Shown here in pieces: positions 35,133 through 43,673 of a stretch of DNA of 64,000 nt; position 1 is the stretch's first letter; each line of letters starts with the position of its first letter. Source of the stretch: a virus (taxonomy: Duplodnaviria; Caudoviricetes); IMG/VR virus record IMGVR_UViG_3300013947_000035, positions 14,009-78,008 of that record. One strand, 5' to 3'. The translations under genes and the position numbers were made by a program. Under the pieces are notes generated by a model that worked only from the letters and a program-made list of their open reading frames with translations, was not told the origin of the DNA and did no database searches.

Positions 35133-35240
35133 CCTCGTATTATTGAGTAGTGCCGATAATTCGAGAAATACTAATAATGCGAGGGCAATCCTCTAATCAA
35201 GACCACGCACTACAATAGGTCAAGATTGGAGGATTTTTTT
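35133..35240 (+). promoter_or_regulatory. structured leader (two long hairpins) upstream of tnpB
   Basis: CCTCGTATTATT/AATAATGCGAGG (35133-35184); AATCCTCTAATC/GATTGGAGGATT (35187-35235) covers the GGAGG RBS. Confidence 0.7.
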
Positions 35241-36308
35241 ATGAAAGCATTCAAGACCAGAATATACCCAAATGCGGAACAAACCGTTTTAATCGAAAAG
35301 ACTTTCGGTTGTTGTCGCTTTGTCTATAATAATGGTCTTGAATGTAAAATTGATGCCTATAAGAAAGATAAAACGAACCTATCTGCTTATGATTTGATAA
35401 AAAGAATCACAACTCTTAAAAAAGAATTCGAGTGGTTGAAAGAAGTCGAATTGCACACATTGCAGCAGTCGATTCTTGATTTAGAAAAAGCATATAAGAA
35501 CTTTTTTAGAGAACATAAGGGATTCCCTAAATTCAAGAAGAAAGGCGACAAAGATAGTTTTAGGACGTTTAATATGCGTTTTGTATCACGTCATTTCATT
35601 TATCTTCCGAAAATTGGAGCGGTAAAAATTGCCGAAAAGATAAAAAAGAAGTGGAGCATACATAATGCGACTATAAGCAAAAGAGCAGGGAAGTATTTTA
35701 TCTCGCTATTAATCGATTACGAATCACCAAAAGTCCAAAAGACAGGTGAAGTTGTCGGAATCGATTTAGGCATTAAGACATTTGCGACCTTGTCAGATGG
35801 AACTAAATATGAGAACCCAAAGACATTAAGCAAATACGAGGACAAGATTGCAAGATATCAACGACAATTAAGTCGAACTCAAAAAGGAAGTAACAATCGC
35901 AAAAAGGTTAAAGAGAAATTAGCCCGATTGCATTTGAAAGTATCTAACATTCGGCAAGACTATTTGCATAAAATGAGCCGCGAGATAGCCAATCGTTACT
36001 CGTTTGTTGCGATAGAGGATTTAAATATTGCAGGAATGGTTAAGAATCACAATTTAGCCAAGAGCATATCCGATTGCAGTTGGGGCGAATTCGTCCGTAT
36101 GCTCGAATATAAATGCTCGTGGTATGGTTGTGAACTGCGTAAAATCGGTCGATTTGAACCCAGTAGCAAGTTGTGTTCAAATTGCGGATATAAGATGAAC
36201 GAAATTCCGTTAAATATCCGAAAATGGACTTGTCCTAATTGCGGGACGCACCACGACCGAGACGTAAACGCCGCAATAAATATTTTGAATATAGCACAAG
36301 AAAAATAA
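35241..36308 (+). CDS. tnpB: RNA-guided endonuclease TnpB (IS200/IS605/IS607 family), no tnpA
   Basis: HTH N-terminus (KTRIYP, FGCCRFVYN); RuvC residues GIDLG / IEDL / DRDVNAA intact; CxxC..CxxC zinc finger. Confidence 0.95.
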   Translation: MKAFKTRIYPNAEQTVLIEKTFGCCRFVYNNGLECKIDAYKKDKTNLSAYDLIKRITTLKKEFEWLKEVELHTLQQSILDLEKAYKNFFREHKGFPKFKKKGDKDSFRTFNMRFVSRHFIYLPKIGAVKIAEKIKKKWSIHNATISKRAGKYFISLLIDYESPKVQKTGEVVGIDLGIKTFATLSDGTKYENPKTLSKYEDKIARYQRQLSRTQKGSNNRKKVKEKLARLHLKVSNIRQDYLHKMSREIANRYSFVAIEDLNIAGMVKNHNLAKSISDCSWGEFVRMLEYKCSWYGCELRKIGRFEPSSKLCSNCGYKMNEIPLNIRKWTCPNCGTHHDRDVNAAINILNIAQEK

Positions 36309-36333: not shown

Positions 36334-36361
36334 TTGACATTATGGATTATTGTGCTACAAT
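36334..36361 (+). promoter_or_regulatory. promoter between the tnpB stop and the omegaRNA scaffold
   Basis: TTGACA(36334)-16-TACAAT(36356) with extended TG. Confidence 0.7.
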
Positions 36362-36366
36362 AAAAA

Positions 36367-36480
36367 TTGAAAAGAAGAATGACATAGCACTCTCAGGTAG
36401 AGAGGAAGAGCCTGTTGATACTGTGGACATTAGTTCACTTGAGCAGGAAAATCTTGAATAGGTTACGACCGAAAGAGAAC
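36367..36480 (+). ncRNA. putative TnpB omegaRNA
   Basis: CTCTC-AGGTA-GAGAG hairpin, GAGCCTGTTGA, GTGGAC/GTTCAC hairpin and GAGCAGGAA resemble TnpB right-end RNAs; 3' guide boundary uncertain. Confidence 0.6.
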
Positions 36481-36501
36481 CTTAATATATTGAGGTATAT
36501 C

Positions 36502-37209
36502 GTGACAAATTTTGACGAAATCGAGAAAGAGCAAGAGCAAAAAACCGAAAGCGAGAAATCGTTGACGGCGAAAACTGCTAACGTTCCCGAACTCGCAACC
36601 GAAAAGCGAACGGCTGAATCTGTCATCGAAGCACAACGCCAAATCAACTACGAGAAGATTTCCGAAAACAAGGACTTCCAAGAACGCTCGGCAGTAATCG
36701 ATACTCGTGCTGTCGGCGCAAAACTTGACAAGGCTGACAACGAAACCTACCAACAGGAACTCGAAAACCAGTACGCTCGATACGAACTCGACAAAAAGAA
36801 AGAGGCTCTTGACTACCGAATGAAACTCGAACGCAAGACGACCAAAGAAAAGGTCAAAGCGGACGTGGCAGAGGTCAAGAGAACGATTGCGCTTCAACGC
36901 TATGGCTACCTTTACAAGCCCACAAAAAAAGAAGTGTTGGACGCGGACGGTAACACTGTCAAAGACGAGAACGGAAACGTAGTGTACCAAGAGATACCCG
37001 CAAAAGACTTCACGCCCAGCAAATTCATAAACTGGACGAAAGAGTTTGCGAACTGGTACGGGAACTTGTCAAAATCAATGCAAAACGTAATCAAAACCAC
37101 ACTCAAAATTCTGTTTTTCGGTGGAATTGCGGCACTGCTCGTTTGGGGTGCTGTATCTGGAATCAAATGGCTCATCGATAGCGGAATCTTGGTCGGAATT
37201 GCTAAATAA
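36502..37209 (+). CDS. coiled-coil protein with C-terminal TM anchor
   Basis: GAGGT RBS favours GTG at 36502; ILFFGGIAALLVWGAV TM. Confidence 0.75.
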   Translation: MTNFDEIEKEQEQKTESEKSLTAKTANVPELATEKRTAESVIEAQRQINYEKISENKDFQERSAVIDTRAVGAKLDKADNETYQQELENQYARYELDKKKEALDYRMKLERKTTKEKVKADVAEVKRTIALQRYGYLYKPTKKEVLDADGNTVKDENGNVVYQEIPAKDFTPSKFINWTKEFANWYGNLSKSMQNVIKTTLKILFFGGIAALLVWGAVSGIKWLIDSGILVGIAK

Positions 37210-37232
37210 AATATAATTAGGAGATGAGATAT

Positions 37233-37553
37233 ATGGAAAACGTAAACAGCGTAGAGATTGTCGACTTTGACGAACGTATGCGAATCAAGCTTGCGGAATG
37301 TGACAAGTTCTTCAACGGCAAAGATGCCGCTATTGAAAGAGTCGAACAAGCACGAACTGAACTTGAAGCCGCAGAAAATGCGCTCGCAGAGTATGATAAT
37401 GTCGAATATGTAGAAAAACTCACAGCATATCGTGCTGATTTGGCTCGTAAACTCGGCGTAGTAGAACCCGAAGTCGTAGCGGAGGCGTGTGATGAACAAG
37501 TTGTCGAACAAGAACCCGCACCCGTCATCGAATCTGTGGCACCGCTTTTCTAA
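37233..37553 (+). CDS. acidic coiled-coil hypothetical protein
   Basis: AGGAG RBS 9 nt upstream of ATG 37233. Confidence 0.75.
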   Translation: MENVNSVEIVDFDERMRIKLAECDKFFNGKDAAIERVEQARTELEAAENALAEYDNVEYVEKLTAYRADLARKLGVVEPEVVAEACDEQVVEQEPAPVIESVAPLF

Positions 37554-38490
37554 TACACATCATCAAAACAGGGGAAGTTTTAGTTCTTGGCTAAAAACAT
37601 TTTGTAAGGGATTCGGATTACTTCTGACTTACGAAATCATAGAGGAACTTCTCGAAGAAGCAATAGCCTACACTATAACAGCCATCATCGCGAAAGCGGT
37701 ATCATTTTTGTTAGTGGTATTGCTAACGCAAACAGTAAAAATAACAGCAAAGGGAATAGCAAAGGGAATCACAATAGCACTTAAACCTGCGGTTAAACAG
37801 CTTACCTACAAAGAAGGTAACGACAAAATAACTAAAATATTGAGGTTTATAAATATGTGTAAGGAAAAAATCAAGGAAAATAAATTCTTGAACTTTTTGA
37901 AGAGAAATCCCAAATCGATTTTGGGTATTATTTCTGGTTTTATTGCTTCTCTTGCAGCTGGCGCAGGCACAACTTGCGGTCTCGTTATCGGTAATGTTGA
38001 ACTTCCGCTTTGGGCAAATATTTGCTTCGGCGTTATCGTTTGGCTCGTATTGTTTATTGTCACCGCAATCGGCGTAAAAAATGCAGGTTTTGAAGGCGTT
38101 GCAAAATATCGGTTGAGAAAACTTGCCGAAAAACTTGGTTTTGGCAAAGCGGCAGAAGAACTCGAAAAAGTCGAAAAAGCAATCGAAGCCGAAGATGAGG
38201 CAAAAGCAGAACAAGAAAAACTCGCTCTCGAACAAGCAAAAGCGAAATATCAAGAAGCTTGGAGAATCGACATTACAAGCAAAAAAATTGATATAAACGT
38301 TTCGCTTGAAGATTATATCGCCCAAAGACAAGCCGAAGAAAAAGAAGCGGCTGAAAAAGCAGAGCAAGAGAAACTCGAAGCCGAAGCAGAGCAAGAGAAA
38401 CTCGCAGTCGAAAACGCGTTCTTGGCGGCAGTTTCAAACGGATATGCGGGCTCGTTCGATACTTGGAAAGCAGAGCAAGTAACTAAATAA
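37492..38490 (+). CDS. multi-TM protein with C-terminal coiled coil (holin-like candidate)
   Basis: GGAGG RBS at 37481; several TM segments; second in-frame RBS/ATG at 37855. Confidence 0.65.
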   Translation: MNKLSNKNPHPSSNLWHRFSNTHHQNRGSFSSWLKTFCKGFGLLLTYEIIEELLEEAIAYTITAIIAKAVSFLLVVLLTQTVKITAKGIAKGITIALKPAVKQLTYKEGNDKITKILRFINMCKEKIKENKFLNFLKRNPKSILGIISGFIASLAAGAGTTCGLVIGNVELPLWANICFGVIVWLVLFIVTAIGVKNAGFEGVAKYRLRKLAEKLGFGKAAEELEKVEKAIEAEDEAKAEQEKLALEQAKAKYQEAWRIDITSKKIDINVSLEDYIAQRQAEEKEAAEKAEQEKLEAEAEQEKLAVENAFLAAVSNGYAGSFDTWKAEQVTK

Positions 38491-38568
38491 GATACCAAAC
38501 CTAATCCCCTAATGATGAAATCTCGCAGATAGATTCGTTAGGGGATTTTCATAACCAAAAGGGAAAAT

Positions 38569-39303
38569 ATGAATAAGAAAGTTTTGCATACGATGATAAT
38601 CCTCTGCTGGGTGTTTCTTGGCGCATATGCGTTATTAAAATTAATCCCGCAGTTGGCTGATAAATTTGTGATTGCTGTCAATAACGAGCGTATAGTTGAG
38701 GCGGGTAATTTTGTTGACGAACACGTTTGGTTACAACAAATCGTATATGGACTGACGACATTGCTTACATATCATTTCTATTTATGCGCTTGTTGTCATA
38801 AATGGCGTTTGTCTTGGAAACAATACATCGTACTTATTGTTGCCATTATTGCCGCAAACACATTGAAATATTATGTCTCTGAAATCGCTGTCCAAGTAAA
38901 TGTATTAATAATGGTAATTTATCCGTTCTTATTGAAAAGCGATTATAGAACATTTATAATTATATTCATAACACATTCTGTTGGGCAATTATTGATTAGT
39001 TTTATTCGAGGGGCAGAAATGTCGCTTGCAGACTGCAATACATTGACGTGCCTAATATGTTGTTTAGATATGTATGTATGGCTATTGCTATACTACTTAT
39101 ATGCAAATCTATATAAAGGAGAAAAATTTATGGGTAACGTTGCGCCTCCGTTTTGGGGCAAAATGAACAAAGAAATCGACGCAGAAATTGCGTCTCTCGA
39201 CAAAAAGATTGCCGAGTGCAAGGACACAGAACAACGCAAGAAATACGAAGCTAAAAGGGCTGAATATGAAGAAATGCGCGTTAAAACTTCTGACGAGAAG
39301 TAA
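38569..39303 (+). CDS. polytopic membrane protein (sensor-like) with charged C-tail
   Basis: ~6-7 hydrophobic segments; strong internal AAGGAG-N8-ATG at 39130. Confidence 0.75.
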   Translation: MNKKVLHTMIILCWVFLGAYALLKLIPQLADKFVIAVNNERIVEAGNFVDEHVWLQQIVYGLTTLLTYHFYLCACCHKWRLSWKQYIVLIVAIIAANTLKYYVSEIAVQVNVLIMVIYPFLLKSDYRTFIIIFITHSVGQLLISFIRGAEMSLADCNTLTCLICCLDMYVWLLLYYLYANLYKGEKFMGNVAPPFWGKMNKEIDAEIASLDKKIAECKDTEQRKKYEAKRAEYEEMRVKTSDEK

Positions 39304-39916
39304 AATCGTTATAAAGCACGCCCTGCACTGGTTATCGGTGCAGGGTAAACTTTATTTGCGAGGGATTCCACAATTATTCTTGGTAACAATATTGTTGATT
39401 CCTGCCGCATATTTTACAGGCAAATATATCGAAGCAATTTTCCAAATTATTGCGTTGTTTGCGCTTCGGTATAAATTCCCTAAAACTTATCACGCCGATA
39501 CGACTATGAAATGTACTTTTGTGACGTTAAGTATCGGGTATCTTGCAATTCCGAGAGTTTTGCCTACGAACGTTGCTTTGTTTAGCGCGATATTTGTCAG
39601 TTTCGTTATCGCATTTCTCTCGTGGTTGGCACAAGAATTTATCGACCGAAAGAAACGCATAGCCGAACTCGAAGCCGCGCCTGTTTCCGAGCCATTATCG
39701 TTCACAACTTGTTCGCGAGAAGAATTCGATATGTTGTGTGTAAATAACGGAATCAAGTCAAGCCGCATAGAATATGTTTGGGATTTACTTCGAGGCAAAT
39801 TATCAACATCTGAAATGATGGACAAATATTGCGTAGCCGAAAAAACAATTAGTCAAGACCGTTGGCGATACAGAAAAAGATTTTCTAACCCTATTGACAA
39901 CGGCGAATTGAAATGA
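39266..39916 (+). CDS. AgrB-like membrane cysteine peptidase fused to a C-terminal HTH
   Basis: FALRYKFPKTYHADTTMKC has the AgrB LR...H-x6-C signature; C-terminal LSTSEMMDKYCVAEKTISQDRWRYRKRF is HTH-like. Confidence 0.6.
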   Translation: MKKCALKLLTRSKIVIKHALHWLSVQGKLYLRGIPQLFLVTILLIPAAYFTGKYIEAIFQIIALFALRYKFPKTYHADTTMKCTFVTLSIGYLAIPRVLPTNVALFSAIFVSFVIAFLSWLAQEFIDRKKRIAELEAAPVSEPLSFTTCSREEFDMLCVNNGIKSSRIEYVWDLLRGKLSTSEMMDKYCVAEKTISQDRWRYRKRFSNPIDNGELK

Positions 39917-39922
39917 TATTAT
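39894..39922 (+). promoter_or_regulatory. promoter driving the ncRNA island
   Basis: TTGACA(39894)-17-TATTAT(39917). Confidence 0.75.
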
Positions 39923-40056: not shown

Positions 40057-40223
40057 GTAACCCTGCGGGTAGTGCGCATACCCGTTGTCCGAAGCTATTG
40101 GCGGATAGAGTTTAATATGGCATCGTGTTCGCGACCGATGCTATGACCACGCAAGCAGTTTTGTACTATGCACTATATGTAACATAGCCTGAACGGTTCT
40201 CGACAAAAAGTAAGCTTGCATTT

Positions 40224-40304
40224 GGGGTTGAGAATGGTTTCGATTGCACATAAAGCCGAAGCGCACTGTGCAAGAAACGAGTTCGATTCTCGTCAACTCC
40301 ACCA
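40224..40304 (+). ncRNA. 81-nt tmRNA tRNA-like-domain-only RNA (no mRNA-like domain)
   Basis: GGGGTTG/CAACTCC-ACCA with G3.U70; 13-nt AGAATGGTTTCGA D-loop; 7-bp TTGCACA/TGTGCAA helix; GAA linker; ACGAG-TTCGATT-CTCGT T-arm. Confidence 0.8.
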
Positions 40305-40494: not shown

Positions 40495-40570
40495 GCAGGT
40501 ATGGCGCAATCGGCAGCGCAACTGATTTGTAATCAGTCGGTTGTCTGTTCGAGTCAGACTTCCAGCACCA
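40495..40570 (+). tRNA. trnT: tRNA-Thr (anticodon TGT), CCA encoded
   Basis: 76-nt cloverleaf; ACTGA-TTTGTAA-TCAGT anticodon arm; GTCTG-TTCGAGT-CAGAC T-arm; two acceptor-stem mismatches. Confidence 0.85.
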
Positions 40571-40802
40571 CCACTTTCACAATTCGAGAGAGCCGACTGT
40601 TTTTCGAAAAATTTTGGTCGATTTTCTCATTTCTATTGATTTATTTATGAATTTGTGTTAATATAAGTTTGTGTGAAGTGCTTATCAAGTATAAACCGTG
40701 CCGCCATTGCAGTGGCGACCAAAACACACTGTACTATGCACTATATGGGAGCATAGCCGAACAGACTGCACCTTGCGCTAAATATTAGTGAAGGTCAAGA
40801 TA

Positions 40803-43029: not shown

Positions 43030-43227
43030 ATGGATAACTGGAATTTAGATTTTTTAGACGTGATTACCGTATTGTCATTCGTGTTAGGGATTGAGAACCT
43101 AAGATTGAATCAGCAACAATCGGGCGACGTTATGGATGAACTCCGTAAGAACCAGAATGCTATGCTGGCAACCATCATAAAACAAAACGAGGAGATAATT
43201 AGGCTCCTAAGGGGACAAGAAAAATGA
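43030..43227 (+). CDS. small membrane/coiled-coil protein
   Basis: LDVITVLSFVLGIENL..N; 65 aa. Confidence 0.7.
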   Translation: MDNWNLDFLDVITVLSFVLGIENLRLNQQQSGDVMDELRKNQNAMLATIIKQNEEIIRLLRGQEK

Positions 43228-43673
43228 TGCTAAAAAACGATATTAGGCACATAATCGAACACGGTAAGCCCGAAGATATGTACAAACTCGAAGAATTGTT
43301 CAACGACGTAGTAGAAGATTTGCGTGAAAGCGATAAGGATGAGTATTGCGAAATCGTTTACAAAGTTCACAAAATCGCTCACGGCGGACATCTCGGCGAA
43401 GAACTCGCAAAGAAGTGGGTCGATTCTATGGAAAACAAAGACGGCACACACGGTGCGCATTGGTCGTGGGATGAAGTCGATAAAGTACGCAAACAATATG
43501 CGCCCGAAGCAGACGAAGGCGATTTCTACGCCGCAATTTCGATGATGTATTCGGATTACTATAATTCACGTTTCGATACGGCAACATACGCACAACTCGC
43601 GAAAGACTGGCTCGACGACAAAGACGTCGGCAGTTGCAAAACGCTCAAATACTATATGAAGGTTGTTAAATAA
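43224..43673 (+). CDS. conserved acidic phage protein
   Basis: G.HWSWDEV, FYAA.SMMYSDY and LAKDWLDDKD..KT.KYY motifs. Confidence 0.8.
   Translation: MMLKNDIRHIIEHGKPEDMYKLEELFNDVVEDLRESDKDEYCEIVYKVHKIAHGGHLGEELAKKWVDSMENKDGTHGAHWSWDEVDKVRKQYAPEADEGDFYAAISMMYSDYYNSRFDTATYAQLAKDWLDDKDVGSCKTLKYYMKVVK

Follow-up and report, generated by a model that had tools for sequence, protein, structure and literature searches.

A phage module in which a truncated AgrB-like membrane core is joined to a sigma region 4/LuxR-like helix-turn-helix domain

To our knowledge, AgrB, the membrane cysteine endopeptidase by which the staphylococcal quorum-sensing peptides of the agr system are matured, is known only as a stand-alone enzyme making cyclic autoinducing peptides, and we know of no experimental structure of it. 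In the FsrB/FsrD system of Enterococcus faecalis, the AgrB homolog shares its reading frame with the peptide, for which there is a separate internal translation start. Membrane-tethered factors under proteolysis include the anti-sigma/sigma pairs subject to regulated intramembrane proteolysis (RIP) and pro-sigmaE with SpoIIGA, to which phi29 p16.7 can be added as a model of DNA tethering to the membrane. His77 and Cys84 form the invariant catalytic dyad of AgrB, Arg70 contacts AgrD, and the active site is proposed to be cytosol-accessible (PMC10482373). Phage-borne agr genes are already known from the Clostridioides difficile phage phiCDHM1 (PMC3901668). Here, a gene module of a gut phage is described from a stretch of 64,000 nucleotides (hereafter, the window) representing bases 14009-78008 of the 78,008-bp IMG/VR virus record IMGVR_UViG_3300013947_000035, which is rated 100% complete by CheckV. 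The module consists of a membrane domain (component A), a 57-aa peptide in frame with it (component B) and a protein (component C) in which an AgrB-like membrane core is followed by a helix-turn-helix (HTH) domain. This anatomy is assigned with high confidence. Both open reading frames (ORFs) listed in an earlier reading of the region, made from the sequence only, are located on the + strand, and the sequence observations reported there are all present.

Component C (P0001, 216 aa) is encoded at 39266..39916 (+), as defined by the ORF, the starts of homologs and an AlphaFold2 model. Although the mechanical ORF of this second gene spans 39188-39916, the start is almost certainly not at 39188 but at the ATG at 39266, since the sequence AAAAGGG is found 7 nt upstream of it (39253-39259) and the homologs, of which 33 are close, begin with MKKC. 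The first 38 nt of the gene, read in the +1 frame, are shared with the end of A-B. The model, built on an 87-sequence alignment (pLDDT 93.2, pTM 0.70), superseded a poor one obtained from a 30-sequence alignment (pLDDT 67). It comprises a long N-terminal helix (residues 2-51), with the first 30 residues being basic and amphipathic, membrane helices 54-68, 80-97 and 107-125, the last of which extends into the cytoplasm up to residue 137, a coil (138-150) and helices 151-160, 165-176, 181-188 and 192-207. According to hydropathy and the positive-inside rule, the N-terminus, the loop 68-83 and the HTH are predicted to be cytoplasmic. No family was found for C in NCBIfam or PADLOC, and the ESM Atlas gave no usable match for it and, for A, only unnamed clusters below 0.9.

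The AgrB-like membrane core (residues 30-125; 39353..39640, +) contains four transmembrane (TM) helices and was delimited with Pfam PF04647, hhalign and the model. The motif LRYKFPKTYHADTTMKC, which corresponds to residues 67-83, places His76 and Cys83 at the same H-x6-C spacing as His77/Cys84 of the S. aureus AgrB. These residues belong to a putative active-site loop, Arg68...His76...Cys83 (39467..39514, +), assigned from the AgrB alignment, conservation and the positive-inside rule; its predicted cytoplasmic orientation fits the cytosol-accessible active site proposed for AgrB (PMC10482373). The resemblance of the motif to AgrB, which the sequence-only reading had pointed out, goes beyond chance: P0001 matches PF04647 with 25.3 bits (cut-off 23, E 1.1e-5), 29 out of 30 close homologs match Pfam AgrB as well (E<=0.1), and the His/Cys pair is nearly invariant. 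The TM region had also been called AgrB-sized, which did not hold, as residues 36-117 cover only positions 31-116 of the 185 in the profile.

Profile-profile comparisons were based on an 87-member alignment of the C family (A2) with a mean identity of 26%. Its comparison by hhalign with six canonical AgrBs, each a full-length match to Pfam AgrB (E 3.4e-36 at best, 1.3e-31 for the first member), gave a probability of 96.8% and an E-value of 2.8e-10 over 79 columns (P0001 residues 30-109 to AgrB 29-112), while the comparison with the AgrB of phiCDHM1 gave a probability of 89% (E 2e-6). Arg68, His76 and Cys83 are aligned with the Arg, His and Cys of AgrB in both cases, and in the former E56 is in register, too. 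Conversely, the best partial matches of the family profile in bacterial genomes are canonical AgrBs. A lack of AgrB fold similarity or of His/Cys conservation among homologs had been named beforehand as what would overturn the idea, and the pair proved to be conserved: in the non-gap rows of 150 cluster representatives (<=50% identity), His is kept in 141/143, Cys in 142/143 and Arg68 in 134/141. Similarity to AgrB is likewise present, by sequence profile, and, judged by these alignments, C shares the catalytic core of AgrB, not full-length AgrB. A Foldseek search of the PDB with the model gave no match for the membrane core at E<=0.001 (E above 0.1); no AgrB was found in the PDB by sequence either, the phiCDHM1 AgrB query returning only an unrelated energy-coupling factor (ECF) transporter with an E-value of 0.32.

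The second half of C is a cytoplasmic four-helix HTH resembling those of sigma-70 region 4 and LuxR/GerE (residues 148-207; 39707..39886, +), assigned by profile comparison with the PDB, VIA-align and sub-threshold Pfam matches. The stretch previously quoted as an HTH-like tail turned out to be helices 3-4 of this domain, which matches both LuxR/GerE and sigma region 4. It is modelled with a pLDDT of about 95 over residues 150-207, and its recognition helix is strongly basic. When residues 148-214 were aligned structurally with VIA-align, the matches included SigR region 4 (Z 5.3) and SigF region 4 (Z 5.2, rmsd 2.6, 57/57 residues), with Z-scores below 8 being expected for a 60-residue domain and indicating fold likeness only; SigH, CnrH, SigA domain 4, SigD4 and SigW were also matched, as were the LuxR-type proteins DosR and DesR. 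The family profile matched EvgA (E 0.005), VraR, DevR and GerE (0.01-0.05) and NarL in the PDB, with E-values ranging from 0.005 to 0.1 and all the matches lying on one segment, residues 142-188. Sigma70_r4_2, DUF1492 and HTH_23 of Pfam were matched below the cut-off and by distant members of the C family only, and weak sigma-factor matches for C were found in BFVD. These scores are each modest but concordant, and the C-terminal domain is a tetrahelical sigma4/LuxR-like HTH.

The modest single-sequence scores (Pfam 25 bits; Foldseek against the PDB, E above 0.1) are in line with the suggestion that C is an ordinary hydrophobic phage membrane protein unrelated to AgrB or HTH. Such a chance resemblance is extremely improbable given the profile-profile probability with the catalytic motif in register, the reciprocal recovery of AgrBs, the consistent sigma4/LuxR matches on one segment and a BFVD relative annotated as AgrB (see below), and it is effectively refuted by residue conservation, the AgrB profile comparison and the HTH structural matches. 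The possibility that C is half of a split sigma factor was rejected as well, the phage genome having no match to sigma region 2 (PF04542) at E<=0.1. A second weak Sigma70_r4_2-like HTH (E 4.8e-4, below the cut-off) lies outside the window, in an ORF of 224 aa within the first 14 kb of the genome (G000:C1:10559-10639, L029).

Component A (38569..39129, +) is the membrane domain of the upstream ORF 38569-39303 (P0002, 244 aa). It was described before as a polytopic protein with no kinase domain, which agrees with the six TM helices predicted by hydropathy and positive-inside analysis and with the absence of any Pfam family. The predicted topology is N-in/C-in, and P0002 ends with a 57-residue charged tail, which is component B. 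There are 77 homologs of A, and its invariant polar residues include C73, H136, R147 and D167. No NCBIfam or PADLOC family and no PDB match were found for A, and its comparison with AgrB, with C and with the phiCDHM1 AgrC sensor revealed no similarity (probability 2% or less).

Component B (39130..39303, +) is a predicted cytoplasmic peptide having its own Shine-Dalgarno (SD) sequence, AAAGGAG at 39115-39121, ahead of an ATG at 39130. The SD and the ATG are kept in every related locus, and the N-terminal motif M-G-x3-P-P-x-[WFY]-G-K is followed by a variable charged helix. B forms an ORF of its own, in another frame, in L011 and L012, which are independent assemblies. Two distant phages (L027 and L028) code for a 183-aa membrane protein, then for B as a separate gene of 46-47 aa with its own SD, which is followed by an overlapping gene of about 200 aa with the same R-x7-H-x6-C motif and an HTH. 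The A homologs of 183-184 aa lack B. The peptide starting at 39130, already noticed in the sequence-only reading, has thus gained in strength through the conserved SD and the separate gene in distant relatives, and B is translated as the tail of A and probably also alone from the internal SD.

The order A-B-C holds in all the loci examined. Moreover, at least eight representative clusters are single fused A-B-C proteins of about 350-436 aa (P0134, P0203, P0226, P0230, P0186, P0251, P0252 and P0249), in which the N-terminal half is a homolog of A (31% identity, E 6e-30 for P0134) and the C-terminal half a homolog of C. The only strong match in BFVD, A0A8S5R960, is a fused protein of 429 aa automatically named 'Accessory gene regulator B' (E 1.2e-7). 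A word-index search for longer fused forms scored none, which is weak evidence. Because of the synteny, the conserved B and the A-B-C fusions, A, B and C are an obligate functional unit.

As to what this unit does, we read the module tentatively, giving the mechanism even odds at best, as a protease-gated, membrane-tethered DNA-binding regulator. C would be an inner-membrane protein composed of a truncated AgrB-type cysteine-peptidase core (TM1-4) and a cytoplasmic HTH, working as one unit with the six-TM A and the 57-aa cytoplasmic B. The Cys/His site would cut B (or the A-B tail), or the 138-150 linker of C, at the membrane-cytoplasm interface, and the cut would free or unmask the HTH, which would then act on phage or host DNA. 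The most parsimonious substrate would be B or the A-B tail, by analogy with AgrB and AgrD, the alternative being the disordered 138-150 linker. The AgrB reaction releases a C-terminal fragment, which suits a switch freeing an HTH. For this mechanism we infer the catalytic activity, the substrate, DNA binding by the HTH and the regulated target alike. As for the earlier interpretation of C as a one-component, membrane-tethered quorum-sensing processor or regulator, its architectural part stands (an AgrB-like core, an HTH, a polytopic partner, no AgrC or AgrA), while the part concerning quorum sensing and AgrD is unsupported.

Several observations weigh against a protease-gated regulator. The last third of AgrB, with TM5-6 and the conserved Pro, is missing from the core, the alignment stopping at residue 109, or about AgrB position 112; the GG ahead of the catalytic His is replaced, and the canonical invariants G71, G72 and P122 are without a counterpart in C. 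Going by these differences, catalysis may be lost or altered. Taken singly, the scores for the HTH are marginal, with E-values of 0.005-0.1 and a Z of about 5 for a domain of 60 residues; a DNA target of the HTH was not identified, and a cleavage-site motif could not be defined. In the fused A-B-C forms, furthermore, the B motif is degenerate and B is an internal linker.

The truncation and the loss of the GG motif are also what favours a different role, in which the AgrB-like core is without catalytic activity and serves as a membrane anchor or scaffold, and C, together with A, holds DNA or a complex bound to DNA at the membrane, for example to organise the replication or packaging of the phage, as in the case of phi29 p16.7, or to block superinfecting DNA. 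The layout of a TM domain, a long helix (107-137) and a small DNA-binding domain would suit this role, and in two relatives (L011 and L003) the gene lies directly 5' of replication and recombination genes. Nevertheless, Arg, His and Cys are nearly invariant in 150 clusters with pairwise identities as low as about 20%, which would hardly be expected of an anchor, and the obligatory partners A and B are left unexplained; an inert anchor is thus considered unlikely. The same near-invariance argues for retained catalysis of the core, which, as far as can be judged from residue conservation, is rather probable.

Component B leads to another alternative, namely, phage agr-like communication, in which B would be an AgrD analogue cut by the C core, possibly cyclised, and exported as an extracellular signal, A would be the exporter, a second protease or the sensor, and the HTH of C would turn the signal into transcription in the style of arbitrium or quorum sensing. 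A conserved peptide gene of 46-57 aa with its own SD always adjoins C, and the in-frame position of B and its internal start are reminiscent of FsrB/FsrD of Enterococcus. The characterised AgrB enzymes all process an adjacent small precursor (PMC10482373), and agrBDC genes are known to be carried by a phage (PMC3901668). On the other hand, the conserved Cys or Ser needed for a thiolactone or lactone ring was not found in B, and B has no match to Pfam AgrD, although the power of that test was low, the AgrD of phiCDHM1 used as a positive control itself reaching an E-value of only 0.21. Besides, B is predicted to be cytoplasmic and is an internal linker with a degenerate motif in the fused proteins, A is not similar to the AgrC sensor, the kinase and AgrA are absent from the genome, and neither a tyrosine nor a serine integrase was found in the phage genome, which leaves no obvious choice between lysis and lysogeny to be regulated. 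Agr-like communication is therefore judged quite unlikely, and a secreted-signal role of the module is possible but unsupported. Quorum sensing and the processing of host AgrD, both put forward in the sequence-only reading, are likewise unsupported, as B lacks an AgrD-like Cys/Ser core and A does not resemble the AgrC sensor.

A more speculative version of this idea, which we regard as decidedly doubtful, is a phage-only peptide maturation-and-response device, with virulent gut phages communicating via a one-protein 'agr-like arbitrium'. B, with its invariant Gly2 and the P-P-x-aromatic-G-K motif, would be cut by the C core and possibly cyclised head to tail; A would be a second protease, an exporter or a sensor, and its invariant Cys, His and Asp could form a second catalytic centre; and the sigma4-like HTH would convert processing or peptide occupancy directly into transcription.

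The module is not a canonical agr system. The absence of AgrA and of an AgrC kinase, noted earlier, was confirmed, there being no match to LytTR (AgrA) or to the AgrC-type HATPase_c_5 in the 78-kb phage genome. A profile search of the whole library retrieved 270 representative clusters (50% identity) at E<=1e-3; among 150 representatives, the core and the HTH are both present in 134, with the R/K-H-C residues kept in 130 of these 134. No match was found by tblastn in the GenBank phages (50,697 records) with C and three distant members as queries. Among the 401 Bacillota genomes sampled, the only full-length member is located on a phage-like contig of a Ruminococcus metagenome-assembled genome (MAG), with the other matches being canonical AgrBs or unrelated HTH domains. 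The family appears to be restricted to uncultivated phages of Bacillota.

The same search bears on the possibility of host interference, with the C core binding or cleaving AgrD-type propeptides of the host, or another membrane-associated protein, and so silencing or sensing quorum sensing. The homology to AgrB with retained active-site residues would allow for such a role, canonical AgrBs are present in at least 5 of the 401 Bacillota genomes, and Clostridia often have agrBD. Yet an identity of 20-25% to bacterial AgrBs over about 80 residues indicates an old phage lineage and not a recent capture, the C-terminal half of AgrB is missing, and the conserved phage peptide B would remain unexplained, which makes interference with host signalling improbable. 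No canonical AgrB was found in the Ruminococcus MAG with the related phage contig, which, the MAG being incomplete, does not prove its absence. A protease-gated, membrane-tethered regulator thus remains our preferred, if tentative, reading of the module.

Several RNA and promoter-like elements accompany the three components. An 11-bp hairpin (39320..39346, +) lies in codons 19-27 of C, 17 nt past the A-B stop, and was seen in 7/7 close loci; 3 of its 11 pairs vary, each on one side and none being broken, with no compensatory double changes. It may set the A-B:C ratio, or it may be an attenuator or a processing site. A +1 frameshift joining A-B to C, with this hairpin as a stimulator, was rejected, as GAG-AAG-TAA-A offers neither a slippery nor a re-pairing site, and it is also ruled out by the conserved SD and ATG of C itself. 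The RNA fold revealed another, terminator-like hairpin followed by UUUUCAU (38503..38547, +) in the intergenic region between the gene for a 333-aa membrane protein and A (-21.3 kcal/mol, z -3.49; 0/200 shuffles fold as well). With this terminator-like element ahead of A, transcription of A-B-C may depend on read-through or start at an internal promoter-like site (38932-38960).

At the end of C, where a promoter had been proposed before, there is a promoter-like site, TTGACA-17-TATTAT with an upstream TG (39894..39922, +), found by a consensus scan; it matches the consensus at 11/12 positions, which is a consensus match only, overlaps the C stop and faces an island of non-coding RNA (ncRNA) and tRNA genes. 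This island is present only in some close relatives (L003 and L006) and absent from L008, L010 and the distant L027 and L028, so the resemblance of the layout to agr/RNAIII, suggested in the sequence-only reading, was not borne out. The island includes an Rfam match to transfer-messenger RNA (tmRNA) with 56.3 bits (cut-off 47), which spans 81 nt only and represents tRNA-like ends without the mRNA-like part, and an adjoining tRNA-Thr(TGT), the two being located at 40224-40304 and 40495-40570. A perfect 18-nt direct repeat, TGTACTATGCACTATATG, at 40162-40179 and 40730-40747 brackets most of the island, its copies starting 568 nt apart.

Every large gene from about 13.8 kb on is on the + strand, and the genes for the portal, the major head protein, tail proteins, an IS605-type TnpB and several membrane and coiled-coil proteins are followed by the A-B and C genes, the ncRNA/tRNA island, small genes, replication genes and the large terminase. 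Given that an integrase was not found, this is probably a virulent phage. The nearest relatives of the locus are IMG/VR contigs from one sample and a 40-kb contig binned into the uncultured Ruminococcus MAG, so Clostridia are the likely host. The region directly upstream of the module (36415-38490) codes for a C-terminally anchored coiled-coil protein, a 109-aa coiled-coil protein and the 333-aa multi-TM/coiled-coil protein, none of which has a known family; the same three genes are syntenic in relatives (L011 2401-3473). Further upstream, between the tail genes and this membrane-protein operon, there is a full-length IS605-family TnpB (35226-36308) with matches to OrfB_IS605, a Cas12f1-like TNB domain and an HTH, as well as to a PHROG transposase (E 7e-139), and it is followed by a strong promoter-like site, TTGACA-16-TACAAT with a TG, at 36334-36361.

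No endolysin was recognised within the window; in L013, the fused A-B-C gene comes after an Amidase_2-SPOR endolysin gene and two small genes. A few kb 3' of the module (43224-43673) there is a DUF7841 protein (Pfam E 2.3e-19), which is also found in other phages, including distant relatives (L003 11347-11793, L027 7561-8277 and L028 7850-8552). Rare fusion proteins combine DUF7841 with an A-like part (P0102) or with a fragment of a C-like core (P0212), which hints at a functional link with the module or, alternatively, at assembly chimeras.

When compared with AgrB (PF04647), C shares the TM1-TM4 core, the Arg, His and Cys in register, the H-x6-C spacing, the predicted cytoplasmic active-site loop and an adjacent small-peptide gene. 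It differs in covering only positions ~30-116 of the 185-position profile, in having no TM5-6 or conserved Pro, in the replaced GG and in the C-terminus being an HTH, as well as in its obligatory six-TM partner of no known family, the upstream B without a Cys/Ser core and the lack of AgrC and AgrA. The agrB-agrD-agrC cassette of phiCDHM1 (PMC3901668; HG531805) likewise carries a phage-borne AgrB homolog after the structural genes, just past the endolysin gene, as does the fused form of L013. However, its AgrB is a full-length, canonical protein of 197 aa accompanied by a recognisable AgrD and an AgrC kinase recently derived from bacteria, and the phage is temperate, whereas the form described here is divergent, truncated and fused to an HTH, with no kinase, in an apparently integrase-less phage.

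The HTH of C shares with sigma-70 region 4 and LuxR/GerE domains, including the DUF1492/ArpU-type small phage late activators, the four-helix fold, with the best structural matches being to sigma4, and the sequence pattern of a scaffold helix and, after it, a basic recognition helix with K-K-L at its end. In contrast to these, it is covalently attached to a membrane enzyme core, there is no region 2 in the phage, and the Pfam scores are below the cut-off, so that membership is not established. As in FsrB/FsrD, a product of signal-peptide size is in frame with a preceding membrane protein, but here B is in frame with A, which is not an AgrB. Similarly to RIP, SpoIIGA and p16.7, a DNA-binding or sigma-like domain would be held at the membrane beside a protease activity, with the difference that C unites the protease and the DNA-binding domain in one polypeptide, that the protease is of the AgrB type and not a site-2, rhomboid or aspartic one, and that the sequences are unrelated.

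Literature searches turned up neither a fusion of an AgrB core with an HTH nor the A-B-C module; one fused member has been automatically named 'AgrB'. The architecture of this large, hitherto uncharacterised family is regarded as new, an AgrB core cut to four helices being wired to a sigma-like DNA-binding domain and tied to two new partners, and an annotation is supplied for a recurrent 'hypothetical' gene trio of gut viromes. For AgrB enzymology, the family offers a minimal catalytic core together with a deep, diverse alignment giving a confident model (pLDDT 93). Should the core prove active, C would be the first AgrB-type peptidase joined in one polypeptide to a transcription or DNA-binding output, and the module would represent either a new route of regulated membrane proteolysis or new phage peptide signalling.

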